This document shows, piece after piece, positions 770 through 34,146 of a stretch of 36,925 nt of DNA. This stretch comes from Acidimicrobiia bacterium. GTDB taxonomy: Bacteria; Actinomycetota; Acidimicrobiia; Spongiisociales; UBA5794. Position 1 is the stretch's first letter. Each line of letters starts with the position of its first letter. The stretch covers positions 1 to 36,925 of the forward strand of contig JBFISZ010000003.1 in NCBI GenBank assembly GCA_041608315.1, written 5' to 3'. The translations under genes and the position numbers were made by a program. The notes beneath the pieces were generated by a model. That model was not told the DNA's origin, did not search any database, and saw only the letters and a list, made by a program, of their open reading frames with translations.

Positions 770-771
770 CG

Positions 772-1890: not shown

Positions 1891-1963
1891 GCTAGGTCGA
1901 CTACTGGCGGCACTTGAACGAGCGGCAGACGAGCCGCGGACATACCAGGCGAGGAGAGGGTTG

Positions 1964-7876: not shown

Positions 7877-9241
7877 ATGTCGGATTACATCAAGGTCACT
7901 CTCGACGAGAGTGAGATACCTACTCAGTGGTACAACATCATTCCCGATCTCTCGGAGCCGCCGCCCCCGCCGCTGCACCCGGGGACTCATCAGCCGATCG
8001 GGCCCGACGACCTCGCCCCGCTGTTCCCGATGGGCCTCATCCTTCAGGAGGTGAGCCAGGACAGCTACATCGACATTCCGGGGCCGGTGATGGATGTCTA
8101 TAAGAAGTGGCGGCCCAGTCCTCTGTACCGCGCCCGTGCCCTGGAGAAGGCGCTCGATACTCCGGCCAAGATCTTCTACAAGTACGAAGGGGGGAGCCCG
8201 GCCGGTTCGCACAAGCCGAACACCGCCGTGGCGCAGGCCTACTACAACGCTCAAGAAGGTGTGACCAAGCTCACAACCGAAACCGGGGCCGGCCAGTGGG
8301 GGTCGGCTTTGGCGTTCGCGTGCGCCCAGTTCGGACTGGAGTGCGAGGTCTGGCAGGTGGCCATATCCTTCGACCAGAAGCCCTATCGCAAGACGATGAT
8401 GGAGACCTGGGGGGCGACCGTCCACTCCAGCCCATCGAATCTCACCGAGGCGGGGCGCAAGATCCTGGCGATGGACCCGAACAGCCCGGGCAGTCTGGGG
8501 ATCGCCATTTCCGAAGCCGTCGAAGCCGCAGTGGGCGACGAGAGCACGAAGTACGCCCTGGGGAGCGTCTTGAGCCATGTGCTGCTGCATCAGACGGTGA
8601 TCGGTGAGGAAGCCCTGCTGCAACTCGCCAAGGTGGGGGAGACTCCCGACCTGCTCGTGGGATGCACGGGTGGCGGGTCGAATTTCGCCGGTCTGTCGTT
8701 CCCGTTCCTGCGGGAGAAGATGGCCGGCAAGATGAATCCGACGGTGCGGTGTGTCGAACCGGCATCGTGCCCCTCGCTCACGAAGGGTGAGTTCCGGTAC
8801 GACTTCGGCGACACCATCGGGATGACCCCGCTGGTCAAGATGCACACGCTGGGGCACGATTTCATTCCCGATCCCATCCACGCCGGCGGACTGCGCTATC
8901 ACGGTATGTCGCCGTTGGTGTCGCACATCTACGAGCTCGGGCTCGTCGAAGCCGAAGCAATCAACCAGACGGAGTGCTTCGCCGCAGGCGTGCAGTTCGC
9001 CCGTACCGAAGGCATCCTGCCGGCTCCCGAGCCGACACATGCGCTCGCCGCGGCGGTTCGGGAGGCCAACCGCTGCAAGGAGACGGGGGAGGAGAAAGTC
9101 ATCCTCACGGCGCTCTGCGGACACGGTCACTTCGACCTGACGGCCTACGACGCCTATCTGTCGGGCCAGCTCGTCGACTACGACTACCCCGACGAGAAGG
9201 TCGCGGCCGCCATGAAGAACGTGCCGGTGGTCACCGGCTAG
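7877..9241 (+). CDS. trpB2: TrpB2-type tryptophan synthase beta chain (stand-alone PLP enzyme)
   Basis: [23 protein letters not shown] (PLP Lys), [24 protein letters not shown] and LCGHGHFD. No trpA nearby. RBS GAGGAGG. Confidence 0.93.
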
Positions 9242-9248
9242 GTCGTGT

Positions 9249-9271
9249 CTTCCCCTGCGTTGGAGGGGAAG
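9249..9271 (+). terminator. Stem-loop after trpB2, possible terminator or stabilising hairpin
   Basis: CTTCCCCT-7 nt-AGGGGAAG perfect 8-bp stem just after the stop; no U tract. Confidence 0.4.
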
Positions 9272-9338
9272 CCGCGGTCCCACATTGCCGGCAAGGCGAC
9301 AATCTCGGCGACCGTGCGTCCTCTGTGACCCGGCGTTT

Positions 9339-9347
9339 TGTTATCCT
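9339..9347 (+). promoter_or_regulatory. Candidate extended -10 promoter for the rid-ior-iaa operon
   Basis: TGtTATCCT about 50 nt upstream of the rid start. Confidence 0.35.
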
Positions 9348-9355
9348 CGCACCAT

Positions 9356-9393
9356 GCCACCCACTGAGGAGGGCGGCCACCCACTGAGGAGGG
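9356..9393 (+). repeat. 18-bp direct repeat at 20-nt period containing the RBS
   Basis: GCCACCCACTGAGGAGGG at 9356-9373 and 9376-9393. Confidence 0.9.
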
Positions 9394-9396
9394 TGA

Positions 9397-9819
9397 TTGA
9401 GCGAGGACCCAGCGCTGAGCCAGCATCTTCTCGTCAACCCGCCCCAGATGGCACCGGCGATCGGGTATTCCCACGCCGTTGTCGCCGCCCCGGGCCGTAC
9501 GGTCTACCTGGCGGGCCAGATAGCGTTCGACGACAAGGGCGTCATCGTCGGCGACACGTGGCTGGAACAGTTCGACGTGGCCCTGGGCAACCTCGTCGCT
9601 GCGCTGGCCGGGGCGGGAGGCCTCCCCGAGCACGTCGTTTGGATGCAGATCTTCACAGTCGACGTTCCGGCGTACCGGGCCGCCCGGCGCGAACTAGGTC
9701 CCGTCTATCAGCGTCATATGGGCCGGCACTTTCCGGCGATGGGCCTCTACGGACTCGCCGAGCTCGCCGATGTCGGCGCGCTGATGGAAGTCACTGCTAT
9801 CGCGGTCGTTCCCGACTGA
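9397..9819 (+). CDS. Rid (YjgF/YER057c/UK114) family protein lacking the catalytic Arg
   Basis: GYSHAV, VYLAGQIA and MEVTAIA motifs; PAM where RidA has PAR. Confidence 0.85.
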   Translation: MSEDPALSQHLLVNPPQMAPAIGYSHAVVAAPGRTVYLAGQIAFDDKGVIVGDTWLEQFDVALGNLVAALAGAGGLPEHVVWMQIFTVDVPAYRAARRELGPVYQRHMGRHFPAMGLYGLAELADVGALMEVTAIAVVPD

Positions 9820-9873
9820 TGCGTCTGCATCTGCCCATCCCCCGGCAGCTGTCTCCCGGTGTGGGAGCGGACG

Positions 9874-12800
9874 ATGAGTGAACATCCGTTGCTGGCGGAC
9901 GAAGCGGGCCGTACCGAGCTGCTGCTGGGAAACGAGGCGATTGCCCGCGGAGCGATCGAGGCCGGAGTCGGGTTTGCCAGCGGCTATCCGGGGACTCCAT
10001 CCACCGAGGTGACCGACACGTTCGCTCGATTGGCTCCGGAGCTCGGCATTCCGTTCGAGTACTCGGTCAATGAGAAGGTGGCTTTGGAGATGGCGTTCGC
10101 GGCTTCTCTGGCCGGCACCCGCTCCATCGTGGCCATGAAGCACCTCGGGCTCATGTCCGCCGGCGATCCGCTGGGCACCATCTCCTACATCGGAACGGTC
10201 GGCGGGATGGTCATAGTGAGCGCCGGTGACCCGTCGCTCCACACCAGCCCCAACGAGCAGGATCAGCGCCATCTGGCGGAGATGCTGCACCTTCCGATGT
10301 TCGATCCGCGAACTCCCCAGGAGGCTCTCGAAGTCACGCGGGCTGCCTTCGAGCTCTCGGAGCGCAGTCGCCTGCCCGTCGTCGTGCGGCCGACGACACG
10401 GGTTTGCCACACATCGGCATCGGTCCGTTTCGGGCCCAGGGCCCGGCCCGTCGTTACGGGTTTTCAGCGCGACCCGAAGCGGTTCCTGCCCATGCCGGCG
10501 AACGCGCGGAGGATGAGGGTCGAGATCAAGGAGCGGCTGGCGATTGCTGCCGCCTTCATGCGCCAATCGCACTTCTTCCAGCGCAGCGGAGCCGGCCGCA
10601 ATGCCATCCTTGCTTCAGGGGCGCCGGCCGCGGTGTGCGTCGACGTGCTCGAGGCGGCCGGGGCATCAGACAGTGTGACGCTACTGTCGCTCGGCATCGT
10701 CTACCCGCTTCCCGAGGAGTGGCTGGTCGCGGCACTGCGCGAGATGGACACGGTAATCGTGGTCGAGGAGCTCTCCCCTTATCTCGAGGATCGGGTGCGG
10801 GCTCTCTGCACGCTCCATGGGCTCTCCACCAAGATCCTCGGTCAGCGCACCGGGCATCTTCCCGGGGAGTTCGAATACGGGCCCGAGGTCATCCAGGCGG
10901 CGCTCCACGACGTATTCGGCCTCGGTTCCCAGCTCGAGCCCGCCCGAACGCCGCAACCCCTCCCGGTGCGGTCACCGACGTTGTGCGTGGCCTGCCCTCA
11001 TCGGTCGGCGTTCTTTGCGGCACGCTCCGTTTTCGGGGACGACGCCCTCTACTTCAATGACATCGGCTGCTACACCCTCGGAGCCCTGCCTCCGTTGAAC
11101 GCAGGCGATGCGCTGCTCTCGATGGGCGCCGGGTTCACGCTCGCCGCAGGTGTCGCCCGTACGACCGGGAAACGAACCCTGGGCTTCGTCGGCGATTCGA
11201 CGTTCTTCCATTCGGGGATGCCGGCATTGCTCAACGCCATCAAGGAAAACGTGAACATGGTGGCGGTCGTGATGGACAACCAGGTGACGGCCATGACCGG
11301 GTTCCAGGAGAGTCCCGGGGTCGAGATCCAGGGACGGGTCGTGCAGCGCTCGGCCGACATCGCCGCCGTGGTGAGGGCGCTCGGCGCCCGTCACGTCGAG
11401 ACGATCGACCCCAACGACCTCGCCGCCGCCGTCTCCGCCTTTGAGCGAGCCAAACAGCGCGATGAGCTCAGCGTCATCATCTCGCAGCGAGCCTGCCCTA
11501 TCTTCTTCGAGCGGGAAGTCGGGCGTCGCGAGCGAGCCATCCCGGACGACGTGGCCCAGGTCGATCTGGTCGACGCTGCCGGCGAGGCCGAAGCGACTGT
11601 GGCCGAGCAAGTCGCCACTGCGATTGCCCGCCAAGGCGATGATCCGACGACACGCGGAATCGCCACCTACGCCATCGATCACGACCGCTGTCAGCACTGC
11701 GGGCGCTCGAGTTGCGGGCAGCGTTGCGCCCAGGGAGTGGAAATCGGCTTCGAACGCGCCATGGCCCGTGCCCGGTCGCTCGAAGCCGGAACGGACCTGA
11801 ACCGACCGCCGATCGCTCCCTGCGCCACCAAGTGCCCCCTCTTCCTGTGCATCCAGGGCTACTCGGCGCACATCGCCGCAGGGCGCTACGGGGACGCCCT
11901 CGAGCTCATAATGAGCGGCTTGCCACTGGCAGACTCGGTGTGTCGCGTTTGCCACCGGCCGTGCGAGGACGCCTGCGTCCTGGGCGAGCAGCCGGTCGCC
12001 ATCAACGAGCTCAAGCGGTTTGTCATGGACTGGGCCGGCGCCCAGGACGAGTTCCCCTATCGGCCGCAGCCTGCGCCCGCCAACGGCAAAACGGTTGCCG
12101 TGGTCGGAGCGGGGCCCGCCGGGCTGGCGGCCGCCCATGAGCTCGCGCTGCGCGGATACGGCGTCCGCCTCCTCGATGCCAACGACCAGCCGGGGGGGCT
12201 GCTCGCCACGGGAATCCCCTCATATCGGCTGCCACCCGAGGCGCTGCGTCGCGACGTCGATCGCATCCTCGGTTTGGGAGTCACGTTCGAGGGCAACACA
12301 CGACTGGGAACCGATGTCGACATTGATGAGCTCCTCGGAGCTCACGACGCCGTTCTGTTGGCAATCGGGACCGGCGTCGCTGCCGACCTCGAGCTCAGCG
12401 GTCGGGGCCCCGCAGTCGTCCAAGGGCTCGACTACCTCAACGGAGGCGGCGCGTCTGCCGACCGGGTCGTCGTCGTCGGTGGCGGCAACACGGCCGTAGA
12501 TGCCGGCCGCACGGCGCTGCGGCGCGGCGCATCCCGAGTAGTGCTGGCGTGCCTCGAGGACCGGGCGGAAATGCCGGCGATCGACAGCGAGATCGCCGCG
12601 GCGTGCGAGGAAGGCGTCGAACTACGCACCCGGCGCAAGGCGGTCGGGCTGGTCGCCGCGGGCATCGAGCTCGTGTCGGTGGAGCCACGAGTTCGAGGCC
12701 GGACCGATCCCGAGAATTTCGAGGTGGTCGCAGGCACCACCACCGCAATCGATGCCGACCTGGTCGTGATCGCCGTCGGGCAGCGCCCCGACCCCTCGAT

Positions 12801-13371
12801 TCGGTGGCTACCCGGCGACGTCCCGGTCTCGGCGGACGGGCCGGTTGTCGACGACGAGTGCGGGGCCACGGCTCACGAGCGGATCTTCGCCGCCGGGGAC
12901 ATGGCAGACGGCGCGGGCAGCGTCACCGATGCGATTGCCGGCGGGCTGCGGGCGGCCTGGGGCATCGACCGCAAGCTGCGGGGCGCCGCCAAAGCGGATG
13001 AGCGGCCACCCCCGCCCCGGGTCCCTTCGGGCCCACCGGCCGGGAGGCCCGGAGTATGGCGGGTCGACGACACGACGCGAGCAGCGACTCCGGAACTCGA
13101 TCCCCGCACGCGCGCGGCTACCTTCGACGAAGTAGTCGGCACCCTCACCGAGAAGACAGCTCGAGCGGAGGCCTCCCGGTGCATGATCTGTGGTCTGTGC
13201 GGCAACTGCAACGCGTGTCTCGATCTGTTCGGCTGTCCCGCGTTCTACGTCGCAGACGGCCTGATCGAGATCGACTCCGGCCTGTGTGTGGCTTGTGGGG
13301 TGTGTGCCCAGTTCTGTCCGAACGACGCCATCTACCCGGTGGCGCGATCGCCGGAGGTCGGGTCGCTTTGA
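9874..13371 (+). CDS. iorA: Indolepyruvate oxidoreductase alpha subunit fused to a GltD/NfnB-like FAD/NAD(P) Fe-S oxidoreductase and a ferredoxin domain
   Basis: LLGNEAIARGA, GYPGTPSTE, NEKVALE, CVACPHR, DIGCYTLG and GDSTFFHSG (IorA/TPP). Then CATKCP, CRVCHRPCEDAC, GAGPAG, GGGNTAVD and FAAGD (GltD-like). Ends with 4Fe-4S motifs including CVACGVCAQFCP. Confidence 0.85.
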   Translation: MSEHPLLADEAGRTELLLGNEAIARGAIEAGVGFASGYPGTPSTEVTDTFARLAPELGIPFEYSVNEKVALEMAFAASLAGTRSIVAMKHLGLMSAGDPLGTISYIGTVGGMVIVSAGDPSLHTSPNEQDQRHLAEMLHLPMFDPRTPQEALEVTRAAFELSERSRLPVVVRPTTRVCHTSASVRFGPRARPVVTGFQRDPKRFLPMPANARRMRVEIKERLAIAAAFMRQSHFFQRSGAGRNAILASGAPAAVCVDVLEAAGASDSVTLLSLGIVYPLPEEWLVAALREMDTVIVVEELSPYLEDRVRALCTLHGLSTKILGQRTGHLPGEFEYGPEVIQAALHDVFGLGSQLEPARTPQPLPVRSPTLCVACPHRSAFFAARSVFGDDALYFNDIGCYTLGALPPLNAGDALLSMGAGFTLAAGVARTTGKRTLGFVGDSTFFHSGMPALLNAIKENVNMVAVVMDNQVTAMTGFQESPGVEIQGRVVQRSADIAAVVRALGARHVETIDPNDLAAAVSAFERAKQRDELSVIISQRACPIFFEREVGRRERAIPDDVAQVDLVDAAGEAEATVAEQVATAIARQGDDPTTRGIATYAIDHDRCQHCGRSSCGQRCAQGVEIGFERAMARARSLEAGTDLNRPPIAPCATKCPLFLCIQGYSAHIAAGRYGDALELIMSGLPLADSVCRVCHRPCEDACVLGEQPVAINELKRFVMDWAGAQDEFPYRPQPAPANGKTVAVVGAGPAGLAAAHELALRGYGVRLLDANDQPGGLLATGIPSYRLPPEALRRDVDRILGLGVTFEGNTRLGTDVDIDELLGAHDAVLLAIGTGVAADLELSGRGPAVVQGLDYLNGGGASADRVVVVGGGNTAVDAGRTALRRGASRVVLACLEDRAEMPAIDSEIAAACEEGVELRTRRKAVGLVAAGIELVSVEPRVRGRTDPENFEVVAGTTTAIDADLVVIAVGQRPDPSIRWLPGDVPVSADGPVVDDECGATAHERIFAAGDMADGAGSVTDAIAGGLRAAWGIDRKLRGAAKADERPPPPRVPSGPPAGRPGVWRVDDTTRAATPELDPRTRAATFDEVVGTLTEKTARAEASRCMICGLCGNCNACLDLFGCPAFYVADGLIEIDSGLCVACGVCAQFCPNDAIYPVARSPEVGSL

Positions 13372-14039
13372 GCGGAACTCTGCAGATTGCCGTTGTCGGC
13401 GTCGGCGGCCAGGGCGTAGTCAGTCTGGCTCGCCTTCTGGGAAGGGCCGCCGTGCAGGCCGGCCTCGAAGCCCGGGTCGGCCAGATCCACGGCCTGTCGC
13501 AGCGGGGCGGCAGCGTCGAGGCGACGGTAGTGCTCGGGCCCGGAAACACCGCCTACGTCTCTCCCGGGCAAGCCGAAGTCGTCGTCGCGCTCGAGCCTCT
13601 CGAAGCGGCGCGGGCCCTTCCCAAGATATCGGGCACTGCCAGCGTGCTCGTGAATCGGACCCCGATCGTTCCTACCAACGTCACCCTCGATCGTGTCGGC
13701 TATCCCGATCTCGGCTCCCTCGTGTCGCAAATCGAGGATGTCGCCCGCGAAGTTCATCTGATCGAAGGTACCAAGCTGGCTCGCCAAGCCGGCAGCGGGC
13801 GCCTTCTCAATGTGGTCATGGTGGGCGTGGTCGCCGGGCTCGATCTGCTTCCGGTCCCCCCCGGCGTCCTGGCCGCGACGGCGGAACAGTTCCATGGCTC
13901 GCCCCACACCGTCGCCAGGCGAAAGGCCTTCTCCCTCGGTGAAGAACTGGGTCGGGAGTTGGCGGCGTCACGCCTGCTGACGGGTCGGGCGGCGATCGGC
14001 GAACCGGGTCGTGACCACCCTGCGGCCCCCCAGCGATGA
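13368..14039 (+). CDS. iorB: Indolepyruvate oxidoreductase beta subunit
   Basis: GVGGQG, IHGLSQRGGSV, ALEPLEAAR and NVVMVG. TTGA overlap with iorA; RBS GGAGG. Confidence 0.85.
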   Translation: MSGTLQIAVVGVGGQGVVSLARLLGRAAVQAGLEARVGQIHGLSQRGGSVEATVVLGPGNTAYVSPGQAEVVVALEPLEAARALPKISGTASVLVNRTPIVPTNVTLDRVGYPDLGSLVSQIEDVAREVHLIEGTKLARQAGSGRLLNVVMVGVVAGLDLLPVPPGVLAATAEQFHGSPHTVARRKAFSLGEELGRELAASRLLTGRAAIGEPGRDHPAAPQR

Positions 14040-14088
14040 TGGAGATCGCCGCGGTAGGCTGGGGCGAAACCGGAAAGCGGGCCTGAGA

Positions 14089-16164
14089 ATGGCGTACAAA
14101 CTCGGTGTCGACGTTGGCGGGACCTTCACCGACTTCTTTCTGTGGTCGGCCGATGGAACGGTCTCCACCTCCAAGACGCTCTCGACACCGTCCGATCCGT
14201 CGATCGGGGTTCTCGACGGGATCCGCCAGATTGCCGCCGACCAAGGCACCGACTTCACCTCCTTTGCGAGTCAGATAACGACCATTGTTCACGGCACCAC
14301 GGTCACCACCAACGCCACGCTGACGAGAAACGGTGCCAAGACGGGCCTGCTGACCACCAAGGGGGTCCGCGATGCGCTCGAAATGCGGCGCGGCATACGC
14401 GAGGAGCAGTACAACAACCGATTCACCAATGTCGTGCCTCTGGTACCGCGCCATCTGCGCGCTCCGGTGGCCGGAAGGCTCGACTACCAGGGAGACGAGG
14501 TGGAGCCTCTCGACCTCGATGACGTGCAAGCAGCCGTTCGGCTGTTTGCCGGCGAGCAGGTCGAGGCGGTTGCCATCTGTTTCATGAACTCGTTTGCCAA
14601 CCAGTCTCACGAAGACGTCGCCGCCGAAATCGTGCGCCGGGAGCTACCGGACGCCTTTCTCAGCGTCTCGTCTGAGGTACTGCCGACGATCCGCTTCTAC
14701 AACAGGGTTTCGACCACCGTTCTCAACTCCTACATTGGCCCGATTCTGCACAGCTACCTCGAGAGCCTGACCTCCAAGCTGGAAGCAGCCGGCTTCGGTG
14801 GCGTGCTGCTGATCATGCAATCAAACGGCGGGGTCGCCCTCCCCGAGCTCGCGATGCGGCGACCGGCGACGACACTGCTCTCCGGGCCGGCCGGGGGCCC
14901 GGGGGCGGCGGTGGCCCACACCAGGGCCCATGGAAGTGACGACTGCATCGTTGTCGACATGGGAGGTACCAGCTTCGACGCTTCATTGGTACGCGACGGT
15001 GAGGCGGCGATGTATCAGGAGAGCGAGATCGATCGGCTGCGCATCGCACTGCCGATGCTGGCGATCACCACCATCGGGGCCGGAGGGGGCAGCATCGGCT
15101 GGATCGATGAGGGAGGGCTGCTGCGGATGGGCCCGCAGTCTGCAGGCGCCGATCCCGGCCCGGCATCCTACGGCCGCGGAGGCGACCTTCCCACCTGCAC
15201 CGACGCCAACGTAGTTCTCGGGTACCTCGACCCCGAGTTCTTCGCCGGAGGAGCGATGCCACTCGAGTCAGATCAGGCGAGCAAGGCGGTTGCGCGCCAC
15301 ATCGCCGAGCCGCTCGGCCTCAGTGTCGAGGAGGCCGCGGCCGGGATGTACCGGGTCATCAACACCAACATGGCCCATGGGGTTCGCGAGATCACCGTTG
15401 AGCGCGGCTTGGACCCGCGCGATTTCCCTCTCGTGGTGGCGGGGGGAGCGGGATCCCTCCATGCGTGCATGATCGCTCGCGAGCTGGAGATCCCCTCGCT
15501 CCTCGTGCCGGCCACCGCCTCGGTTCTGTGCGCTGCCGGCATGGTGCTCAGCGACCTCCAGCACGACTTCGTGCGGTCCTATGTGTCCCGATTCGGCGAG
15601 CTCGACATGGATCGCCTGGCCGAGCTGGTTGCGACCATGACCGCCGAGGGCGATACCCAACTCGGCTTGGAGGGCATCGATCCGAAGCGGGTCGAGCACC
15701 TGATCGATCTCGACCTGCGCTACGTGAAGCAATACCACGAGGTGACGGTGCCCGTTGCCGCCCAAGCTATCGCCGCCGGCGACCTGACCACGATTGCCGA
15801 GGCCTTCCATCGCGAGCACGATCGCCTCTACGGCTACAACCTGGCCGACGAAGGCACCGAACTCGAGCTCATCAACGTCCGGGTGCGGTCCGTCGGACGG
15901 ACCGACAAGCCCGAGCTACCGACCTTGAAGCCGGGGGGCGAGGACCCGGGCGGGGCGCTCAAGGGCACGCGCCGCGCCTACGTTCCCGAGAGCGACGCCT
16001 TCGCCGACGTCGCCGTCTACGACGGGCACCGCATCGAGCCGAACAACGTCATCGCGGGCCCGGCGCTGATCGAACGGGTCGACACGACGATTCTCGTCAG
16101 CTCCTCTTTCACAGCGCGAGTTGACGACCACGGCAGCTGCCTGCTGCGCGCTAACGGAGGATGA
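14089..16164 (+). CDS. Hydantoinase/oxoprolinase A subunit; probable 2-oxindoleacetate(-CoA) hydrolase subunit (IaaCE-like)
   Basis: DVGGTFTD, HGTTVTTN, LLSGPAGG, DMGGTSFD, IGAGGGSI, GPQSAGADPGP and TDAN motifs. Substrate inferred from context. Confidence 0.9.
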   Translation: MAYKLGVDVGGTFTDFFLWSADGTVSTSKTLSTPSDPSIGVLDGIRQIAADQGTDFTSFASQITTIVHGTTVTTNATLTRNGAKTGLLTTKGVRDALEMRRGIREEQYNNRFTNVVPLVPRHLRAPVAGRLDYQGDEVEPLDLDDVQAAVRLFAGEQVEAVAICFMNSFANQSHEDVAAEIVRRELPDAFLSVSSEVLPTIRFYNRVSTTVLNSYIGPILHSYLESLTSKLEAAGFGGVLLIMQSNGGVALPELAMRRPATTLLSGPAGGPGAAVAHTRAHGSDDCIVVDMGGTSFDASLVRDGEAAMYQESEIDRLRIALPMLAITTIGAGGGSIGWIDEGGLLRMGPQSAGADPGPASYGRGGDLPTCTDANVVLGYLDPEFFAGGAMPLESDQASKAVARHIAEPLGLSVEEAAAGMYRVINTNMAHGVREITVERGLDPRDFPLVVAGGAGSLHACMIARELEIPSLLVPATASVLCAAGMVLSDLQHDFVRSYVSRFGELDMDRLAELVATMTAEGDTQLGLEGIDPKRVEHLIDLDLRYVKQYHEVTVPVAAQAIAAGDLTTIAEAFHREHDRLYGYNLADEGTELELINVRVRSVGRTDKPELPTLKPGGEDPGGALKGTRRAYVPESDAFADVAVYDGHRIEPNNVIAGPALIERVDTTILVSSSFTARVDDHGSCLLRANGG

Positions 16165-16167
16165 TTC

Positions 16168-17919: not shown

Positions 17920-17922
17920 GCC

Positions 17923-19041: not shown

Positions 19042-19436
19042 CGTCTCGCCCGATCCGGGTGCTCATGGCCAAGCCGGGCCTCGACGGCCACGATGTGGGC
19101 GTCAAGGTCGTGTGCCGGGCGCTCATGGACGCCGGCATGGAGGTGATCTACACCGGTCTGCGCAGCTCGCCGGCGGCCATCGCGGCAGCCGCCGCCGATG
19201 AAGATCCCGACGTTGTCGGGCTGTCGGTGCTGTCCGGCGCCCATCTGCCGCTGGCGGCGAAGGTGGTCGACGAACTGGCCAAGCTTCAGGTCGACGGTGT
19301 GCTGCTGCTCGCCGGGGGCAACATCCCGGCCCAGGATCACGACGCCTTGCGCCAGCTCGGATTCGGCGGCATCTTCCCCACCGGAAGCCCCCTCGACGAG
19401 ATCGTGGGCTATATCGAGCAGGAGGTGCCTCGATGA
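19038..19436 (+). CDS. Cobalamin-binding small subunit of an acyl-CoA mutase (IaaGH-like)
   Basis: KPGLDGHDVG (DxHxxG), VGLSVLSGAH and GGNIP. ATGA overlaps on both sides. Confidence 0.9.
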   Translation: MTSRPIRVLMAKPGLDGHDVGVKVVCRALMDAGMEVIYTGLRSSPAAIAAAAADEDPDVVGLSVLSGAHLPLAAKVVDELAKLQVDGVLLLAGGNIPAQDHDALRQLGFGGIFPTGSPLDEIVGYIEQEVPR

Positions 19437-21034: not shown

Positions 21035-21038
21035 TGCG

Positions 21039-22244: not shown

Positions 22245-23101
22245 TGAGATTCGAGTACTACCAGCCGAGCACGACGGCCGAGGCCCTCGAGCTGGCGGCG
22301 CGTTTTCCCGATGCCGAGATCATCGCCGGCGGCACCGATCTGATGGTGCGCCTCAACAAGACGCGTCGTCGCCCGCCGGCCCTGATCTCTCTGCGTCGCG
22401 TTCGAGAGCTGGCTCACATCGAGAACGGCGCCGGGCTGCGCATCGGTGCCGCGGTCCCACTCCGAGACGTGGCCGCCCACCCTGCCGTGACGGCCGGCTA
22501 CCCGGCTCTGGTCGATGCCATCCGGGTGTTCGGTAGTCCCCAGATCCGCAATATGGCGACCCTCGCCGGCAACCTGTGCAACGCCTCCCCGGGGGCAGAC
22601 TGTGCCCCGCCGCTGCTGATATACGACGCAGTCGTCGAGCTGCGAAGCGCCGCCGGCGTGCGGGAGCTGACGATCGAGGATTTCATCCTCGGCCCGGGCG
22701 CAACCGCGCTGGAGGCGGGCGAGATCGTGACGGCCATCCGGCTGCCCCCACTGCCGCCGGACGCCCGCTCGATGTACCTCCGCAAGGGCCGGGTGCAGAT
22801 GGACCTGGCCATCACCGGTGTCGCGGCCCGCCTCGAGCTGGATGGAGCCATCTGTGTGGCAGCCCGGATCGCGGCCGGGGCGGTCGCTCCGGTGCCGCGG
22901 CGGCTGTCGCGGACCGAATCCGTGGTCGCCGGCGCCGCGGCCGGGGCGGAGACGTGGGCGCGAGCCCGAGCCGAGGCCCAGGACGAGATATCGCCGATAA
23001 GCGACGTGCGAGCCTCCGAGCAATACCGCCGCCACCTGACCGGTGTGCTCGTCGAACGCTCCCTGGCGCAACTCGCCTCAACCAGCGGAGGTGGAACGTG
23101 A
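22244..23101 (+). CDS. Xanthine-dehydrogenase-family FAD subunit (IaaIJK-like indoleacetate hydroxylase)
   Basis: AGGTDL, QIRNMATLAGNLCNASPGAD and SDVRASEQYR; no 4Fe-4S insert. Confidence 0.88.
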   Translation: MRFEYYQPSTTAEALELAARFPDAEIIAGGTDLMVRLNKTRRRPPALISLRRVRELAHIENGAGLRIGAAVPLRDVAAHPAVTAGYPALVDAIRVFGSPQIRNMATLAGNLCNASPGADCAPPLLIYDAVVELRSAAGVRELTIEDFILGPGATALEAGEIVTAIRLPPLPPDARSMYLRKGRVQMDLAITGVAARLELDGAICVAARIAAGAVAPVPRRLSRTESVVAGAAAGAETWARARAEAQDEISPISDVRASEQYRRHLTGVLVERSLAQLASTSGGGT

Positions 23102-23583
23102 AAGTGGAGGTCGGCTTCCGGCTGAACGGCTATGAGGTGCGCGCCGAGGTCGAGCCCCATCGGCGGCTCCTCGATGTCCTGCGCGACACCCTGGGCGAGA
23201 CGGGCACCAAGGAAGGGTGCGGCGAAGGGGAGTGCGGTGCCTGCACGGTGCTGGTCGACGGCGCTGCCGTGAACTCCTGCCTCTTCCCGGTGTGCGAAGC
23301 CGCCGGGACGGCGGTGACAACGGTCGAAGGACTCGCCACGGCGAGCGGATCACTGTCGCCGCTTCAGCGGGCCTTTCTGGATCACGGCGGCGCTCAGTGC
23401 GGGTTCTGCACTCCCGGCATCGTGATGGCGGGCGTGGCTCTACTCGCCGAGAATCCCAATCCGAGCGACGCCGAGATCCGCTATGCGCTGACAGGAAACC
23501 TGTGCCGCTGCACCGGGTACATCCAGATCCTCGACGCAATCCGGACGGCGGCCCTCGTGACGCGGGGCGGCTCGAGTGACTGA
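23098..23583 (+). CDS. Xanthine-dehydrogenase-family 2x[2Fe-2S] subunit
   Basis: GTKEGCGEGECGACTV, QCGFCTPG and GNLCRCTGY. GTGA overlap with the FAD subunit. Confidence 0.9.
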   Translation: MKVEVGFRLNGYEVRAEVEPHRRLLDVLRDTLGETGTKEGCGEGECGACTVLVDGAAVNSCLFPVCEAAGTAVTTVEGLATASGSLSPLQRAFLDHGGAQCGFCTPGIVMAGVALLAENPNPSDAEIRYALTGNLCRCTGYIQILDAIRTAALVTRGGSSD

Positions 23584-25969
23584 GCTGCGCCACATTGGCC
23601 GGGATGTCGCTCGCCCCGACGGCGCCGACAAGGTGGGCGGCAGAGCGCGGTACATCAGCGACATCACACGCCCGGGCATGCTCCACGGGGCGATCAAGTT
23701 CAGCGAACACGCCCACGCCCGAATCGTCGGCATCGATACCTCACGAGCGGAGCGGCTGGCCGGCGTACGGGCGGTCATCACCGGCGACGACGTGCCCGAG
23801 GTGCGTTTCGGTTTCTTGCGCGACAACCTGGCGCTGAAGAAGGGCAAGGTTCGCCAGTTCCGCGATGAGATCGCCGCGGTTGCCGCCATCGACCCGGATG
23901 TGGCGCGAGAGGCGATCGACCTGATCGACGTCGAGTACGAGCCGCTACCGGCCCTCTTCGCGCCCGAGGAGGCCCTGGCCGACGGGGCCGTCCTCATCCA
24001 TGAGACGGACGCGGCCGGCCGGCCCGCCACCTCCAACTTGGTACCGGCGCTGTGTCGCCACAGCTCCGGCGATCTCGACGCGGGCAAGCGTGCCTCCCGT
24101 TTCGTGGTGGAAGGCTTGTACACGGTTCCGCGCATTCAACAGGCCTGTATGGGGACGGCCGGGTGCATCGCCGAGTTCGACCTCAACGGCAACCTCACGG
24201 TCACGGCCAAGACGCAGATCCCCTTCCTGGCACAGCGCGACTTCACCAACGCTCTGCGAGCGCTCGGGATGACGGGCAAGAGTGTCCGGGTGGTTGTTCC
24301 GGCCGTCGGCGGGGCCTTTGGTACGGGGCTCGACACCCACGCCTATGAGTACATCTCGATCCTGTTGGCTTGGCGCACCGGCAAACCGGTCAAGATCCTC
24401 TATGACCGCCACGAGGAGTTCGCCTACCTATCTCCCCGCCAATCGGCCGAGCTGTTCATCCGGCAGGGTTGTGACGAGAACGGCAAGCTGACCTTCCGCG
24501 AGATCGAGGTCACCCAGGACAACGGGGCCTACGTCTCATGGGGTGCCACCTATCCGAATGTCATGCTGGTGGCCGCCACTTCGCTCCATCGGGTGCCCAA
24601 CATCCGCTTCGACGCCAAGATCGACTACACCAACAACACGTACTGCCAAGCCATGCGCGGCTACGGCAACCCCGAGGTGACTTGGCCTATCGAGTCGAGC
24701 CTCGACGACCTGGCCGCCGCTGCCGGAATCGATCCGTACCAGATGCGGCTGCTGAACTGCAACGAGCCCGGAGACCTGACACCGATGGGCCTCGATCTGC
24801 AGACGTGCGGCCTGCGCGAATGCCTCGAGAAGACGGCGGCGACCCTCGCCTGGGAGCGGACGAGGAGTGAGCCCCGCCCGCGCGGACGCGGTGTTGGGAT
24901 GGCGGCTCTGATCAACGTGGGCGGTGGCGGCAAGATCTATCGCTCGGACGGCAGCGGGATCATCCTCAAGCTGGACGATTTCGGAAATGTCAACGTCAGC
25001 TACGGCGGCGTCGAGATGGGCCAGGGCCTGCATTCCGCCCTGACGCTGATGGTTGCCGAAGCGGTCGGCGTCCTGCCGGAGCGGGTGATCATCAACCAGA
25101 CCGACACGGCCACGTCGCCATGGGACGTCGGCACCCATGCCAGCCGGGGGGCCTTCATGGCCGGCAACGCGGCGCGTGCTGCCGGCGCCAAGCTCCGGGA
25201 TCGGATCTTCGCGCTCGCCGAAGAGATCTATCCGCTCGAGGTGGAGCGCAACCTGGCGGCCCTCGGAGAGGGGGAAGGCCTCGACGAGTTCGACTTCCGG
25301 TCCGTCACCCGTGACGGGTTCGACCTGCAGGATGGATGGATCTTCTGCAAGGACGCCGGCGAGGAGCCATGGCTGCGAGTCGAGCTGGGACGCTTCCTGC
25401 GGTCCGCCCACTTCGCCAAGCAGGGTGGCGACGGAACGATATTCACCGAAGAGGCTTTCTACGAGCCGCCGACGGATCTGCCCGACTGGGAGGAGGGGTA
25501 CGGCAACATGTCGGCGGCATACACCTTTGGCGTCCAGGGCGTCGAGGTGGAGGTCGATGAGGACACCGGCGAGGTGACCATCTTGCGGCTGGTGGCCGTG
25601 ACCGACGCCGGGCGGGTGTTGAGCCGCCAGGCCGCAGAAGGCCAGCTCTACGGCGGTATCGTCCAGGGCGTGGGCTATGCACTGTACGAAGAGGTGATCA
25701 GTGCCGAAGGCCGGATCCTCAACCCCGGCTTCACCGACTACAAGATCCCGACCGCCGCCGACATCGCGTTCCCCATCGATTTGCAGTGGGTCGAGACGAA
25801 TGACCCCGAAGGCCCCTTTGGGGCCAAAGGGCTGGGCGAGGCGGGGATCGTGCCGACGGCGCCGGCCATAGCCAACGCCATCTACGACGCAGTGGGCGTG
25901 CGGATCCGAGACCTTCCGATCACGCCGGAGAAGGTTGTCCAAGCGCTCGCCGCCAAGGTGGGGGAGTGA
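23576..25969 (+). CDS. Xanthine-dehydrogenase-family molybdopterin subunit (IaaIJK-like)
   Basis: SEHAHA, GGAFG, AMRGYG, EMGQG, HASR and GAKGLGE with the catalytic Glu kept. Confidence 0.9.
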   Translation: MTELRHIGRDVARPDGADKVGGRARYISDITRPGMLHGAIKFSEHAHARIVGIDTSRAERLAGVRAVITGDDVPEVRFGFLRDNLALKKGKVRQFRDEIAAVAAIDPDVAREAIDLIDVEYEPLPALFAPEEALADGAVLIHETDAAGRPATSNLVPALCRHSSGDLDAGKRASRFVVEGLYTVPRIQQACMGTAGCIAEFDLNGNLTVTAKTQIPFLAQRDFTNALRALGMTGKSVRVVVPAVGGAFGTGLDTHAYEYISILLAWRTGKPVKILYDRHEEFAYLSPRQSAELFIRQGCDENGKLTFREIEVTQDNGAYVSWGATYPNVMLVAATSLHRVPNIRFDAKIDYTNNTYCQAMRGYGNPEVTWPIESSLDDLAAAAGIDPYQMRLLNCNEPGDLTPMGLDLQTCGLRECLEKTAATLAWERTRSEPRPRGRGVGMAALINVGGGGKIYRSDGSGIILKLDDFGNVNVSYGGVEMGQGLHSALTLMVAEAVGVLPERVIINQTDTATSPWDVGTHASRGAFMAGNAARAAGAKLRDRIFALAEEIYPLEVERNLAALGEGEGLDEFDFRSVTRDGFDLQDGWIFCKDAGEEPWLRVELGRFLRSAHFAKQGGDGTIFTEEAFYEPPTDLPDWEEGYGNMSAAYTFGVQGVEVEVDEDTGEVTILRLVAVTDAGRVLSRQAAEGQLYGGIVQGVGYALYEEVISAEGRILNPGFTDYKIPTAADIAFPIDLQWVETNDPEGPFGAKGLGEAGIVPTAPAIANAIYDAVGVRIRDLPITPEKVVQALAAKVGE

Positions 25970-27966
25970 ATGTGCCCGAATACCAGAACCCGCTGCTGGC
26001 CGCTCCGGCCCGACCGCTTCCCGAGAGCGTGGCGATCGTCGGGGCCGGCACGATCGGTCCCGACATCGGCTATTACCTGAAGAGCAACATCGCCGATCTC
26101 GAGCTGGTGCTGGTCGACGTCGCCCAGGAGCCGCTCGACGCGGCGATGGCGCGGATCGCCGGCTACGTCGAAAAGGGCCTCGCCCGCAAGAAGCTCACCG
26201 CAGACCAGGCGGCGGGCGTTAGGCAGCAGCTGGTGCCGACACTCGACTACGACGCGATAGCCGGCTGCGATTGGGTCATCGAAGCCGCCACGGAGAACCT
26301 CGAGTTGAAACGCCGGATCTTCGGGCGCATCGAGGAGATCGTGAGCCCCGAGGCCCTCATCACGTCCAACACGAGCTCGCTGCCGGCGGCACGTCTCTTT
26401 GGGAAGCTGGCGCATCCGCAGCGGGCGACCGTCACTCACTTCTTCGCTCCGGCTTTCCGCAACCCCGCAGTGGAGATCGTCGATTGGGCGGGTGCCGATC
26501 CCGACACCACCGCATACCTTCGCTGGCTGTTCTGCATCACCGGCAAGGTGCCTCTGGTCACCGCCGACGTTGTGTGTTTCATGCTGGACCGGGTCTTCGA
26601 CAACTGGTGCAACGAAGCGGGCTACCTGCTCGATCAGGCGACGGCCGCCCAGATCGACCGCGTCGCCGAGGAGCTGGTGCACGCCGGCCCCTTCTTCGTT
26701 CTCAACCTGGCCAACGGCAACCCGATCATCATCGAGACCAACACCCTGCAGATGGAGGCCGAGGGCGAGCACTACCGGCCGGCGCCCGTATTCGGCTCAG
26801 TGGACCGCTGGTTGACGTCTTCTCAGGGCGCGGAGGTGGCCGTGGACGCTGCAGTAGCCGCAACGATTCGAGACCGGCTGTGCGGCGTGCTGCTGTCGCA
26901 ATCGCTGGACATCATCGATCGCAGCATCGGGACGGCCGCCGACCTCGAACTGGGATGCCAGCTCGCCCTCGGGTTCAAGAAAGGCCCGCAGCGGCTGATG
27001 GAGGAGCTGGGCGATGACGAGGCCCACCGCATACTCGAACGGTTTGCCGCCGAGCGGCCCGGCATGCCGATGCCGGCGCGGCCGCTCGCAGAGTATGCCG
27101 GCGAGCGGCGGCACGTCCTGGTGGACGAGGTCGACGGGGTCGTCGTGCTGACGATCCGCCGGCCGCAGGCGCTCAACGCGCTCGACGACGAGGTCACCGA
27201 CGAGTTGCTCGACGCCATATGTGAGCATGAGGCCGATCCGGCCGTCGCCGGTTTCGTGATAACCGGCTACGGGAACCGGGCTTTCTGCGCCGGGGCCGAC
27301 ATCGACCGCTTCCCGGCGATGCTCGGGCACGCGGATGTCGCAGCGCAGTACGCCCGCGACTGCTCGCGCCTCCTGGTGCACCTCGATGCCATGACCAAGC
27401 CGGTGGTGGCGGCGGTCAACGGGATGGCGCTCGGCGGTGGTCTCGAGTTGGCCCTGCGGTGCCACGGCGTCGTTGCGGTCGACGACGCATGGTTCCGGCT
27501 CCCGGAGGTCACGCTCGGTATCGCCCCGGGTATCGGAGCGTTGGTGGTTCCCTACCGGCGTTGGAGCAAGGCCGGCGCCACCTTCCATGAGATGCTGCGA
27601 TTGGGCAAGAGAGTCACTGCCGCCGAGGCGGTGGAGCTGGGGTTCGTCGACGAGCTGGTATCCGGTATCGGGTCGTTGACGGCGGCGGCGGTCGCACGAG
27701 TGCACGCACTCGCCGGCCGCGTTCCGTCCGTACCGGATGGACCGGTCGCCATCCCGCCGTTTGCGGAGCTCGAATCTGCGACTCTCGATGAGATGGGCGT
27801 GAGCCGCGAGGTCATCGATATCATTGAGCAAGCGATCCGCGAGGCGGCGGCCGCGGCGACGCTCGACGAGGCCCTCGAAGTTGGCTACCGAGCATTCGGG
27901 GCCACGGCGTGCACCGGCGCCGCCCGCGAGGGAATCACCGCATTTGTGTCGGGTGCGAAAGGTTGA
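25966..27966 (+). CDS. iaaP: 3-hydroxyacyl-CoA dehydrogenase / enoyl-CoA hydratase fusion
   Basis: N-terminal GAGTIG, IEAATENLELK, SNTSSL and HFF; C-terminal crotonase AFCAGAD, ALGGGLELA and LPEVTLG. Confidence 0.8.
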   Translation: MNVPEYQNPLLAAPARPLPESVAIVGAGTIGPDIGYYLKSNIADLELVLVDVAQEPLDAAMARIAGYVEKGLARKKLTADQAAGVRQQLVPTLDYDAIAGCDWVIEAATENLELKRRIFGRIEEIVSPEALITSNTSSLPAARLFGKLAHPQRATVTHFFAPAFRNPAVEIVDWAGADPDTTAYLRWLFCITGKVPLVTADVVCFMLDRVFDNWCNEAGYLLDQATAAQIDRVAEELVHAGPFFVLNLANGNPIIIETNTLQMEAEGEHYRPAPVFGSVDRWLTSSQGAEVAVDAAVAATIRDRLCGVLLSQSLDIIDRSIGTAADLELGCQLALGFKKGPQRLMEELGDDEAHRILERFAAERPGMPMPARPLAEYAGERRHVLVDEVDGVVVLTIRRPQALNALDDEVTDELLDAICEHEADPAVAGFVITGYGNRAFCAGADIDRFPAMLGHADVAAQYARDCSRLLVHLDAMTKPVVAAVNGMALGGGLELALRCHGVVAVDDAWFRLPEVTLGIAPGIGALVVPYRRWSKAGATFHEMLRLGKRVTAAEAVELGFVDELVSGIGSLTAAAVARVHALAGRVPSVPDGPVAIPPFAELESATLDEMGVSREVIDIIEQAIREAAAAATLDEALEVGYRAFGATACTGAAREGITAFVSGAKG

Positions 27967-27970
27967 GCCA

Positions 27971-29161
27971 ATGACTCTCGAGAAGTCCTTCATCCCCTAC
28001 GGCGGCTACTGGTCGACGCCGTTCTGTCGCTGGCAGGGCAGCCTCGGCGACGCTCACTCGATCAAGCTGGCCGGTCGCGTCGGCAAGGCGTTTCTCGACG
28101 CGAAGCAGATTCCGCCGGAGTCGTTCGACGGGGTCGCGCTGGGGATCACGGTGACGCAGGCATTCGCTTTCTATGGAGCGCCCTGGTTGGCGGGCATGAT
28201 CGGAGCCGAGGGCGTTACGGGCCCCACCGTCTCGCAAGCTTGTGCCACTTCGGTGCGCGTGCTGGCCGGCGCCGCGCTCGAGGTGGAGACGGGCCAGCGG
28301 GATTGCATTCTCACGGTCGGGTGCGACCGTACGAGCAACGGACCCCACGTCTACTACCCCGATCCCGGCGGCCCCGGGGGGCAGGGCACGTTTGAGGATC
28401 CGGTGCTCGGGAACATGAACAAGGACCCTTATGCCGGCTCGGCCATGGTGCAGACGGCCGAGAACCTGGCCGCCGCAGCCGGCATCACCCGCGAGGAGCA
28501 GGAGTCCGTAGCGCTCGAGCGGTACGAGCAGTACACAAAGGCCCTCGCCGCCGACCGGGCATTCCAGAAGAAGTACATGGTCCCGGTCGAGCTGATGCGC
28601 CGCGGCAAAGTAGTCGGAGTCGTCGAGGCCGATGAGGGCGTTCACGAGATGACCGCCGAGGGCTTGGCGCGGCTGCGGCCCGTTGTCGAAAACGGGACGA
28701 TCACCTTCGGCACGCAGACGCATCCGGCGGATGGGAACGCGGGAATCATCGTCACTTCGCAGGAGAAGGCCGCCGAGCTGGCGAGCGGGCCCGCCTCCAT
28801 TCGGATCCTGTCCTACGGTGAGGCCCGGGTCGAAAAGGCATTCATGCCCAAGGCCGTTGTTCCCGCCGCCCGTGACGCCCTGCAGCGGGCCGGACTCGAC
28901 GCCGGCCAGATGGCGGCGATCAAGACCCACAACCCGTTTGCGGTATCGGACGTCTACTTCTGCCGCGAGCTGGATATCGCGGCCGAGGCCGTCAACAACT
29001 ACGGGTCGACGTTGATCTGGGGTCATCCCCAGGCCCCGATGGGGATGCGGGCCATAATCGAGCTGATCGAGGAGCTCGTCATCCGCGGCGGCGGTTACGG
29101 CCTCTTCTCCGGCTGCGCCGGCGGGGACTCGGCGATGTCCCTCGTCCTGGAAGTGGCCTAG
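27971..29161 (+). CDS. iaaA: Thiolase; probable 2-aminobenzoylacetyl-CoA thiolase
   Basis: QACATS, ADGNAG, GHP and CAGG motifs; HNPF in place of NEAF. Confidence 0.8.
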   Translation: MTLEKSFIPYGGYWSTPFCRWQGSLGDAHSIKLAGRVGKAFLDAKQIPPESFDGVALGITVTQAFAFYGAPWLAGMIGAEGVTGPTVSQACATSVRVLAGAALEVETGQRDCILTVGCDRTSNGPHVYYPDPGGPGGQGTFEDPVLGNMNKDPYAGSAMVQTAENLAAAAGITREEQESVALERYEQYTKALAADRAFQKKYMVPVELMRRGKVVGVVEADEGVHEMTAEGLARLRPVVENGTITFGTQTHPADGNAGIIVTSQEKAAELASGPASIRILSYGEARVEKAFMPKAVVPAARDALQRAGLDAGQMAAIKTHNPFAVSDVYFCRELDIAAEAVNNYGSTLIWGHPQAPMGMRAIIELIEELVIRGGGYGLFSGCAGGDSAMSLVLEVA

Positions 29162-32825: not shown

Positions 32826-32841
32826 GCTCAGGAAGGTTGAC

Positions 32842-34137: not shown

Positions 34138-34146
34138 GGTGATCGA

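Follow-up and report, generated by a model that had tools for sequence, protein, structure and literature searches.

A probable oxygen-independent iaa-type operon for tryptophan side-chain degradation in uncultured Acidimicrobiia, with a 2-oxoacid oxidoreductase in the place of IaaB

The operon and its counterparts in Aromatoleum aromaticum

Contig C3 of an Acidimicrobiia metagenome-assembled genome (MAG; 2.42 Mb, 204 contigs, 72% complete) is 36,925 nucleotides long, has a G+C content of about 66% and was analysed over its entire length, hereafter the window. Between positions 7877 and 29161 it carries 15 tightly packed genes, all on the + strand, which probably constitute an oxygen-independent operon for the tryptophan side chain: an iaa-type operon in which IaaB, the ATP-dependent indoleacetate (IAA)-coenzyme A (CoA) ligase, is replaced by a 2-oxoacid oxidoreductase. 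A preliminary description of the window had counted 14 genes, overlooking one for a RidA-family protein; every gene family it did name was found in its place on the + strand by Pfam and NCBIfam. It had also called the genes co-directional and mostly overlapping. They are co-directional, but overlaps (1-8 nt) occur at only seven of the 14 junctions, the others being four gaps of 3-4 nt and three larger ones of 39, 49 and 155 nt. From iorA through the thiolase gene the spacing is by overlap or 3-4 nt, except for the 49 nt before hydA, and the widest gap of the array directly follows the TrpB2 gene.

The array begins with genes for TrpB2, a TrpB-like pyridoxal-phosphate enzyme (7877-9241; NF009057 at 727 bits, cut-off 366; TIGR01415 at 626 bits, cut-off 519), and for a RidA/L-PSP protein of the enamine/imine deaminase family (9397-9819; PF01042, E 1.3e-18; TIGR00004 at 42 bits, under its cut-off of 106). 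Two genes for a putative indolepyruvate oxidoreductase (IOR) follow: iorA, encoding a fusion protein of 1170 residues (9859-13371; Pfam POR_N, TPP_enzyme_C, Fer4_20, Pyr_redox_2 and Fer4), and iorB (about 13368-14039, its uncertain start abutting or overlapping the iorA stop; PF01558 POR, E 4.6e-27). The eleven remaining genes all have counterparts among the iaa genes of A. aromaticum EbN1, with identities of 35-72%. They encode an IaaC-like hydantoinase A (14089-16164; Hydantoinase_A, 60%), an IaaE-like hydantoinase B (16168-17919; Hydantoinase_B, 72%), an orthologue of the acyl-CoA dehydrogenase IaaF, a decarboxylating (2-aminobenzyl)malonyl-CoA dehydrogenase (17923-19041; 57%), the small IaaG-like B12-binding subunit (19038-19436; B12-binding, 59%) and the large IaaH-like subunit (19433-21034; MM_CoA_mutase, 64%) of a B12 mutase, and an IaaL-like family III CoA-transferase (21039-22244; PF02515, 55%). 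A Mo-hydroxylase of the xanthine-oxidase family is encoded next, its subunits assigned by Pfam as FAD (22244-23101, IaaI-like, 35%), 2Fe-2S (23098-23583, IaaJ-like, 49%) and Mo (23576-25969, IaaK-like, 41-45%). Last come a fused 3-hydroxyacyl-CoA dehydrogenase/enoyl-CoA hydratase, named IaaP-like here (25966-27966; Pfam, 64%), and an IaaA-like thiolase (27971-29161; Pfam, 53%). The NCBIfam models closest to the hydantoinase subunits are those of caprolactamase alpha and beta, both scoring under cut-off.

The reference cluster was obtained by searching for IaaF in the family of an Azoarcus genome, where 19 of 151 genomes gave a match. The genome chosen is that of A. aromaticum EbN1: the iaaF forward primer printed in PMC8360864 matches exactly at the gene start. 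Its 37-kb region reads thiolase, a 512-residue AMP-ligase (IaaB), HydA, HydB, IaaF and the small and large mutase subunits, followed by the FAD, FeS and Mo subunits, CoA-transferase and a binding protein, with the hydratase/dehydrogenase gene upstream on the opposite strand. For ten of the 11 EbN1 catalytic Iaa proteins that have a counterpart, the best tblastn match in the MAG lies inside the operon, at 41-72% identity and with large margins. The reverse search of the EbN1 genome returned the iaa gene first for all four proteins tested: the large mutase subunit (744 bits, next match 373), the Mo subunit (589, next 238), HydA (883, next 345) and the CoA-transferase (453, next 147), margins of 1.9- to 3-fold in bits. 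By these reciprocal best hits the mutase, hydantoinase and Mo enzyme fall with the Iaa proteins of A. aromaticum and not outside the Iaa clades.

The IaaF subclass is marked by GGG where other acyl-CoA dehydrogenases have YEG, according to PMC8360864. The C-terminus of the window protein, FTLIGGGTSEIL, contains LIGGGTSEI, with GGG in place of YEG, and GGG is shared by all 33 listed IaaF orthologues of at least 50% identity. One acyl-CoA dehydrogenase paralogue in the MAG (L002) has GEG at this position. A second (L003; G000, contig C82, 2469-3596) has GGG at only 34-36% identity to IaaF, so the motif by itself does not define the enzyme. Relatives of IaaF at about 70% identity include proteins named benzylmalonyl-CoA dehydrogenase by JGI. 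Taken with the reciprocal best hits and the conserved order HydA-HydB-IaaF-MutS-MutL, the motif bears out the identification of an iaa-type operon; its gene content and type are established at the level of sequence.

A MAG labelled 'uncultured Acidimicrobiaceae bacterium' has a contig with the same genes, at 89-98% amino-acid identity, and TrpB2 of C3 is 78-83% identical to TrpB2 of genomes of the same family. The host, earlier described as a likely actinobacterium, is on this evidence a member of the Acidimicrobiia. Near-identical sequence occurs in DNA runs of several studies labelled as marine, sediment and soil metagenomes; no RNA run was among those listed. Short near-identical contigs from public runs of different studies cross the hcrC-trpB2, ridA-iorA, iorA-iorB and iorB-hydA junctions, and these independent pieces argue against a chimeric assembly; no single public piece covers the whole operon, and the listed one over the trpB2-ridA gap enters ridA by 10 nt. 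In the nearest relative (G405, the same as G959) the operon is split over short contigs, with the ridA-iorA part unassembled and the adjacency of trpB2 and ior unconfirmed. Scans for promoters and terminators returned no sites in 7300-14200, and terminator-like sites downstream were at chance level.

A probable indolepyruvate oxidoreductase in the ligase position

The preliminary description had noted the lack of a ligase, and this is borne out for the contig. The four best tblastn matches of EbN1 IaaB in the MAG all lie on other contigs and none on C3. In EbN1 iaaB sits directly upstream of hydA, as it does in a gammaproteobacterial MAG (L008) whose IaaB orthologue is 52% identical to that of EbN1; in the window the same position is held by iorA-iorB. 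EbN1 IaaM, the periplasmic binding protein for IAA uptake, had no match in the 72% complete MAG by tblastn at E<=1e-10.

The architecture of IorA departs from the canonical ferredoxin-reducing form of about 600 residues, in that a GltD/NfnB-like flavoprotein module is fused to it. Residues 20-557 match TIGR03336 (IOR_alpha) with 606 bits (cut-off 650.9) over profile positions 3-541 of 595, and residues 652-1158 match NF009410, a GltD-like family of 'NAD(P)-binding protein', with 372 bits. Fer4_20 and FAD/NAD(P) Rossmann domains occupy approximately residues 650-1040, a 4Fe-4S domain lies at the C-terminus, and the PDB chains nearest to residues 640-1045 are of the NfnA/NfnB type and GltD, the small subunit of glutamate synthase. 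The IOR_beta models score 148-156 bits on IorB, with cut-offs of 206-238. Fusions of this family, about 1120-1170 residues long, turn up in MAGs under the labels Planctomycetota, Gemmatimonadaceae, Deltaproteobacteria, Acidobacteria and Acidimicrobiales, and most have no annotation beyond 'FAD-dependent oxidoreductase'. Because an NfnB/GltD-like FAD/NAD(P) module is inserted in IorA, the electrons of indolepyruvate oxidation are probably accepted by NAD(P)+ rather than by free ferredoxin. The earlier proposal of IOR entry from indolepyruvate is upheld as regards the place of the IOR genes in the ligase slot. Modules of the NfnB type perform electron bifurcation or confurcation, and by analogy such a role is possible for the IorA fusion.

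Linkage of ior to iaa genes was assessed in loci whose IaaF is at least 50% identical to that of the window, a threshold passed by six of the best 80 genome-contig loci (L005-L010) and 12 of the best 80 metagenome loci (L085-L096), the remaining matches being mostly generic acyl-CoA dehydrogenases. The counts leave out L011-L084 and L097-L164, with L099 and L107 kept as a sister group; L183, L190, L087-L093 and L203 are too short upstream to score for IOR. Among the matches listed, two metagenome loci (L086 and L094, with IaaF at 72% and 62% identity) repeat the gene order of the window from the iorA fusion through the thiolase, and a third (L085) shows the end of a fused iorA and then iorB directly before iaaF. 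IaaF was found in 11 of 401 sampled Planctomycetota genomes, and five of these 11 loci (L184, L186, L187, L189 and L192) read IorA-GltD-like-(IorB)-HydA-HydB-IaaF. The rest comprise the two short loci L183 and L190, three with other arrangements (L188, L191 and L193) and one with no IOR upstream (L185), whose genome encodes an IorA fusion on another contig. Neither the 11 Planctomycetota IaaF loci nor the metagenome loci of IOR type contain an IaaB-like gene. Other arrangements, with no IOR in the available sequence, were seen at L188, L191/L006, L193, L095, L096 and L010; at the edge of L095 lies an IorA-like fragment of 34% identity. Among 401 Desulfobacterota genomes IaaF was found in two (L203 and L204). 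The upstream region of L203 is unreadable because its contig begins within hydA, and in L204 the 4.6 kb upstream of IaaF showed no IOR- or ligase-like gene.

Co-occurrence across the Planctomycetota sample points the same way. IorA frames of fusion length (at least 1121 residues) are present in nine of the 401 genomes, with both halves listed as matching in seven and the N-terminal half alone in two (G926 and G643). IaaF and a fusion-length frame are found together in seven genomes, and ordinary IorA-like frames (about 590-924 residues, unfused genes of about 590-650 residues among them) in 16 further genomes, none of which has IaaF. We give these as counts, with no statistical test, since related genomes are not independent. 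In a large protein collection, nine IaaF and nine IorA-fusion matches share identical longest-contig sizes (for example 11638, 19743 and 1206541), which lends indirect support. At one locus (L192) a class I/II aminotransferase gene lies directly before iorA and overlaps its start, supporting entry from the amino acid. Position, recurrence and co-occurrence strongly support the view that IOR has taken the place of IaaB, and entry into the pathway through IOR, as predicted from the genes, is well supported.

The linkage of ior and iaa genes, whose absence would have spoken against the preliminary description, is accordingly conserved in other lineages, on two long metagenome contigs and in five Planctomycetota genomes. 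The preliminary description knew of no characterised cluster with this layout. We likewise found no characterised example, but the layout is not unique, being widespread in uncultured Planctomycetota and metagenomes. The literature searched, whose coverage stopped short of published iaa operon comparisons and the Ferroglobus placidus tryptophan pathway, contained no account of an IOR-type iaa operon.

A quick, midpoint-rooted tree of IaaF, which we do not read for the direction of transfer, gathers the proteobacterial sequences in a single well-supported clade, both ligase-type loci among them, and the IOR-type loci fill the rest; window IaaF and that of its Acidimicrobiaceae twin fall in with sequences from Planctomycetota and metagenomes. 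A search of 400 other genomes of the class yielded no IaaF (E<=1e-120). Together with the tree placement, this fits horizontal acquisition of the iaa genes.

A sister type of cluster occurs on four metagenome contigs (L099, L107, L108 and L110). Its acyl-CoA dehydrogenase shares 42-44% identity with IaaF and reads YGGG instead of IGGG, and the accompanying genes encode a CoA-transferase, a mutase, a Mo-hydroxylase and a divergent 4-hydroxybenzoyl-CoA reductase (Hcr)-like enzyme. Clusters of this type may apply iaa-like chemistry to a different substrate.

TrpB2, RidA and the flanking genes

Of 41 relatives, 25 have a TrpB2 orthologue with 61-83% identity (a number that takes in the unpublished G971), and the MAG has a separate TrpB1-like gene on contig C109. 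No TrpB2 was detected at the IOR-type loci L094, L184, L186, L187, L189 and L192; in L094 a hybrid histidine kinase gene lies upstream of iorA. A PALP-family gene that follows the Mo subunit gene in L184 (941-2041, - strand) was considered as a second TrpB and rejected, as it belongs to the D-cysteine desulfhydrase/1-aminocyclopropane-1-carboxylate deaminase family and scores under cut-off. On these comparisons TrpB2 is a resident Acidimicrobiia gene outside the conserved ior-iaa unit. A synteny of trpB2, iorAB and iaa, as first envisaged, was recovered only in part: iorAB recurs with iaa, and trpB2 was not found with them elsewhere in the sequence available.

The neighbourhood of trpB2 was read in eight relatives. 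The nearest (G405) has the hcrA-hcrC-trpB2 arrangement of the window, and its contig stops there. In two of the eight, from different families, genes for tryptophan 2,3-dioxygenase (TDO; PF03301, 335 and 353 bits), a kynureninase-like protein and a TrpB2 80-83% identical to that of the window are clustered (L196, 4363-10909, in relative G969; L197, about 8001-13261, in relative G309), with an adjoining gene of the benzoate-CoA-ligase family above cut-off. TrpB2 thus stands inside an apparent oxygen-dependent tryptophan-to-anthraniloyl-CoA cluster. Going by the predicted products, the TDO-kynureninase-ligase set would lead from tryptophan to an anthraniloyl thioester by a second route; neither TDO nor kynureninase was seen in the source MAG. 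The presence of TrpB2 beside two chemically different routes to such a thioester is the best argument, by association, that TrpB2 feeds indole into tryptophan catabolism. RidA recurs as well: L196 has a RidA near TDO that is 52% identical to the window protein, and in L186 a RidA gene follows the Mo subunit gene. Its task may be to quench the aminoacrylate that TrpB2 lets escape; alternatively, it may hydrolyse an imine or enamine at some other step.

Downstream of the operon, a TetR-family regulator gene (31033-31653, + strand; PF00440, PF17932) lies ahead of genes for a four-subunit class I aryl-CoA reductase of 3-methylbenzoyl-CoA reductase (MBR) type, in MbdN-O-Q-P-like order (31650-35798, + strand; PDB, Pfam, NCBIfam). 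Matches to PDB entries 9g87 and 9gai are strong for MbdN (E 1.2e-158), MbdO (E 1.8e-161) and MbdQ (E 4.8e-125), while those to BzdO/BzdN of the Bzd type are far weaker (E 1e-24 to 1e-26). The fourth subunit (34965-35798) is assigned as MbdP from gene order, PF01869 and NCBIfam matches of BcrD/BzdQ type, not from the PDB, and all NCBIfam models of benzoyl-CoA reductase (BCR) score under cut-off on the reductase subunits. The BCR earlier reported downstream therefore exists as a reductase, but of MBR type and not as a canonical BCR. It is a candidate for acting on 2-aminobenzoyl-CoA or benzoyl-CoA. Oah, a ring-opening hydrolase, is encoded on contig C45 of the MAG (571 bits, cut-off 464). In view of the iaa-type operon, the Hcr-like enzyme and the MBR-type reductase, with Oah in the MAG, contig C3 is part of an anaerobic aromatic-degradation island.

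Several other genes were noted in the window. Two toxin open reading frames (ORFs) on the + strand, MazF/PemK-like (29571-29960) and PIN-domain (30407-30718), lie between operon and reductase and may mark the seam of a mobile or mosaic island. Divergent from trpB2 are the genes of a three-subunit Mo enzyme resembling 4-hydroxybenzoyl-CoA reductase (3839-7745, - strand); its alpha subunit scores 870 bits on TIGR03194 (cut-off 994.55), and in its FAD subunit the FAD domain is extended by an insertion of about 40 residues, which we take to be typical of HcrB. Positions 604-3784 (+ strand) encode a PPDK_N protein (428-residue ORF) and then a 607-residue protein with a PEP-utilisers mobile domain, a pair that presumably resembles the phenylphosphate synthase proteins PpsB/PpsA and would fit a phenol or hydroxyaromatic module next to the Hcr-like genes. 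A cysteine-containing ORF of 127 residues (35717-36100, + strand) overlaps the end of the MbdP-like gene, and an open-ended ORF of 260 residues occupies 36143-36925 (- strand); neither has a Pfam match.

Proposed pathway, alternatives and known systems

We propose the following course for the pathway. Tryptophan would be converted to indolepyruvate by an aminotransferase encoded outside the window, and the IorA fusion with IorB, going by their domains, would turn indolepyruvate and CoA into indoleacetyl-CoA and CO2, with electrons probably delivered to NAD(P)+. The Mo-hydroxylase, the ATP-dependent, lactamase-like hydantoinase (predicted to open the lactam ring of the oxindole), the CoA-transferase and the B12 mutase would then act as in Aromatoleum, and decarboxylating IaaF, the hydratase/dehydrogenase and the thiolase would yield 2-aminobenzoyl-CoA and acetyl-CoA. 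For this stretch the orthology of the enzymes is shown by the sequence comparisons above, and the chemistry would follow by analogy with the EbN1 work. The MBR-type reductase, with Oah encoded elsewhere in the MAG, could take the ring further. TrpB2 might make tryptophan from indole and serine (or phosphoserine), which would let indole enter too; this is the weakest step, and we regard indole entry through TrpB2 as plausible but somewhat less likely than not. The overall sequence in the preliminary description, from tryptophan through indolepyruvate and indoleacetyl-CoA to 2-aminobenzoyl-CoA, is retained for its IOR and iaa parts; the linkage to TrpB2 is not.

A number of observations weigh against the proposed pathway. 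No aminotransferase is encoded in the window, and only one other IOR-type locus has such a gene next to ior. The IOR_alpha and IOR_beta scores are both under their equivalog cut-offs, with the domains clearly present by Pfam. For the FAD subunit IaaI (35% identical), paralogues elsewhere in the MAG score higher, so that it has no best match in the operon. In four of the 11 IaaF-positive Planctomycetota genomes the fusion was not found, and in L185, L007 and L009 the genes upstream are neither IOR nor ligase. Beyond the operon, the reductase lies 2.5 kb downstream with two toxin genes and the TetR gene intervening, so co-regulation cannot be taken as given.

Some of these points, and others, bear on alternative explanations. 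The genes might form an ordinary auxin (indoleacetate) operon that uses free IAA, its ligase being encoded elsewhere in the incomplete MAG and the neighbouring IOR serving general arylpyruvate oxidation. According to PMC8360864, all characterised iaa systems begin from IAA. An IAA-CoA ligase could indeed be encoded elsewhere, which also weighs against the proposed pathway: the MAG is 72% complete, and several AMP-dependent ligases are present in it, with homologues on contigs C58, C34 and C38 at 30-39% identity to IaaB, of which the best (38.6%, C58) stands beside ABC-transporter genes. We nevertheless find this explanation improbable, as iorAB holds the iaaB position 49 nt from hydA, the ior-iaa order is repeated in seven other loci of different lineages with no IaaB-like gene in any, the fusion and IaaF coincide in seven of 401 genomes when only nine and 11 carry each, and the true IaaB orthologue of L008, 52% identical to the EbN1 protein, is well above anything in the MAG. 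It is a still more remote prospect that the operon applies iaa-like chemistry to a different N-heterocyclic or aryl 2-oxoacid and not to indolepyruvate. Enzymes of the IOR family accept several arylpyruvates, so the substrate of this one is read from context alone, a further point against the proposed pathway; and the sister clusters L099 and L107, with YGGG dehydrogenases 42-44% identical to IaaF beside a mutase and a Mo-hydroxylase, indicate that the chemistry has diversified. Yet eight of the 11 steps are 53-72% identical to the EbN1 enzymes, with reciprocal best hits, and window IaaF lies inside the clade holding EbN1, apart from the YGGG group.

A different question is whether TrpB2 and RidA belong to the pathway at all or are bystanders, resident housekeeping or salvage genes beside an inserted, horizontally acquired ior-iaa island whose conserved unit starts at iorA. 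The evidence here is, in our judgement, evenly balanced. TrpB2 is widespread among relatives (25 of 41), including ones where IaaF was not found, as compared with none of the 400 other class genomes for IaaF itself, and window IaaF groups with Planctomycetota and metagenome sequences in the quick tree. None of the seven other IOR-type loci (L192 included; the region upstream of iorA is not available in L085 and L086) has TrpB2, and the 155-nt gap sets it off from the next gene. These facts speak against a place for TrpB2 in the pathway, and the earlier inclusion of TrpB2 in the ior-iaa unit does not stand. On the other hand, TrpB2 adjoins tryptophan-degrading genes in at least three genomes and with two chemistries, that of TDO and kynureninase in two relatives, and RidA recurs with such clusters, near TDO in L196 and after the Mo subunit in L186. 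The bystander explanation agrees with the proposed pathway at all steps but indole entry. On the whole we take the operon to be a genuine and hitherto uncharacterised form of a known pathway.

A wider picture can be drawn, which we offer as speculation more apt to fail than to hold. IorA-NfnB/GltD fusions would be a widespread indolepyruvate:NAD(P)+ oxidoreductase, perhaps an electron-confurcating one that combines low-potential electrons of the 2-oxoacid with high-potential electrons such as those of IaaF. By way of this enzyme, uncultured Planctomycetota, Acidimicrobiia and others would turn tryptophan into 2-aminobenzoyl-CoA at a saving of ATP and with no need of oxygen. TrpB2 would serve catabolic indole capture in Acidimicrobiia, the indole then being mineralised by way of tryptophan, with oxygen through TDO and kynureninase or without it through ior-iaa, both leading to an anthraniloyl thioester.

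To our knowledge the anaerobic mineralisation of tryptophan and indole is poorly resolved, and the only route studied biochemically begins at free indoleacetate, in denitrifying betaproteobacteria. The operon and its relatives suggest a pathway fed directly from the amino acid by an oxidoreductase in many uncultured anaerobes. If this is true, IOR entry would spare the cell the ATP that ligation costs and supply it with reducing power. Three candidates emerge for further work: a fused IOR with a predicted link to NAD(P), a catabolic TrpB2 in a family whose function is debated, and an MBR-type reductase for an ortho-amino ring. Anaerobic aromatic degradation by the benzoyl-CoA route is now also placed in Acidimicrobiia of marine, sediment and soil metagenomes.

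Compared with the iaa systems of EbN1 and A. evansii, which take indoleacetate anaerobically to 2-aminobenzoyl-CoA, the window shares orthologues of IaaA, C, E, F, G, H, J, K and L and of the hydratase/dehydrogenase (41-72% identity), as well as the core order HydA-HydB-IaaF-MutS-MutL and the GGG motif of IaaF. Unlike EbN1, it lacks the IaaB ligase, the IaaM binding protein, the regulators IaaQ/IaaR and the truncated iaaD, and has the iorA fusion with iorB in the iaaB slot and TrpB2 and RidA at its head. Its CoA-transferase gene stands between those of the mutase and the Mo enzyme, and not after the Mo subunit gene as in EbN1, and its hydratase/dehydrogenase and thiolase genes come last, at the 3' end, and share the strand of the others. 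The hosts differ too, an acidimicrobial lineage here and a denitrifying betaproteobacterium for EbN1.

With the IorAB enzymes of anaerobic archaea and bacteria, whose product, indoleacetyl-CoA, is the compound that enters the iaa pathway, the window proteins share the TPP/PFOR domains of IorA and the POR domain of IorB; they differ in the 1170-residue IorA with its NfnB/GltD-like module and terminal 4Fe-4S domain, and in NAD(P)+ as the predicted acceptor. The reductase has the same four subunits, in the order N-O-Q-P, as MbdONQP, the ATP-dependent class I 3-methylbenzoyl-CoA reductase (PDB 9g87, 9gai), but adjoins iaa genes instead of mbd peripheral genes, and may use 2-aminobenzoyl-CoA. A tryptophan pathway has reportedly been proposed for F. 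placidus as well, one said to lead anaerobically from tryptophan to a 2-aminobenzoyl thioester. Predicted iaa operons are present in strict anaerobes, Desulfatiglans anilini and F. placidus among them (Schuhle et al. 2016, cited in PMC8360864), where, by the same text, they come with a dedicated electron-transferring flavoprotein. In contrast to these operons, the window encodes no such flavoprotein; like them, it places iaa genes outside the denitrifiers.

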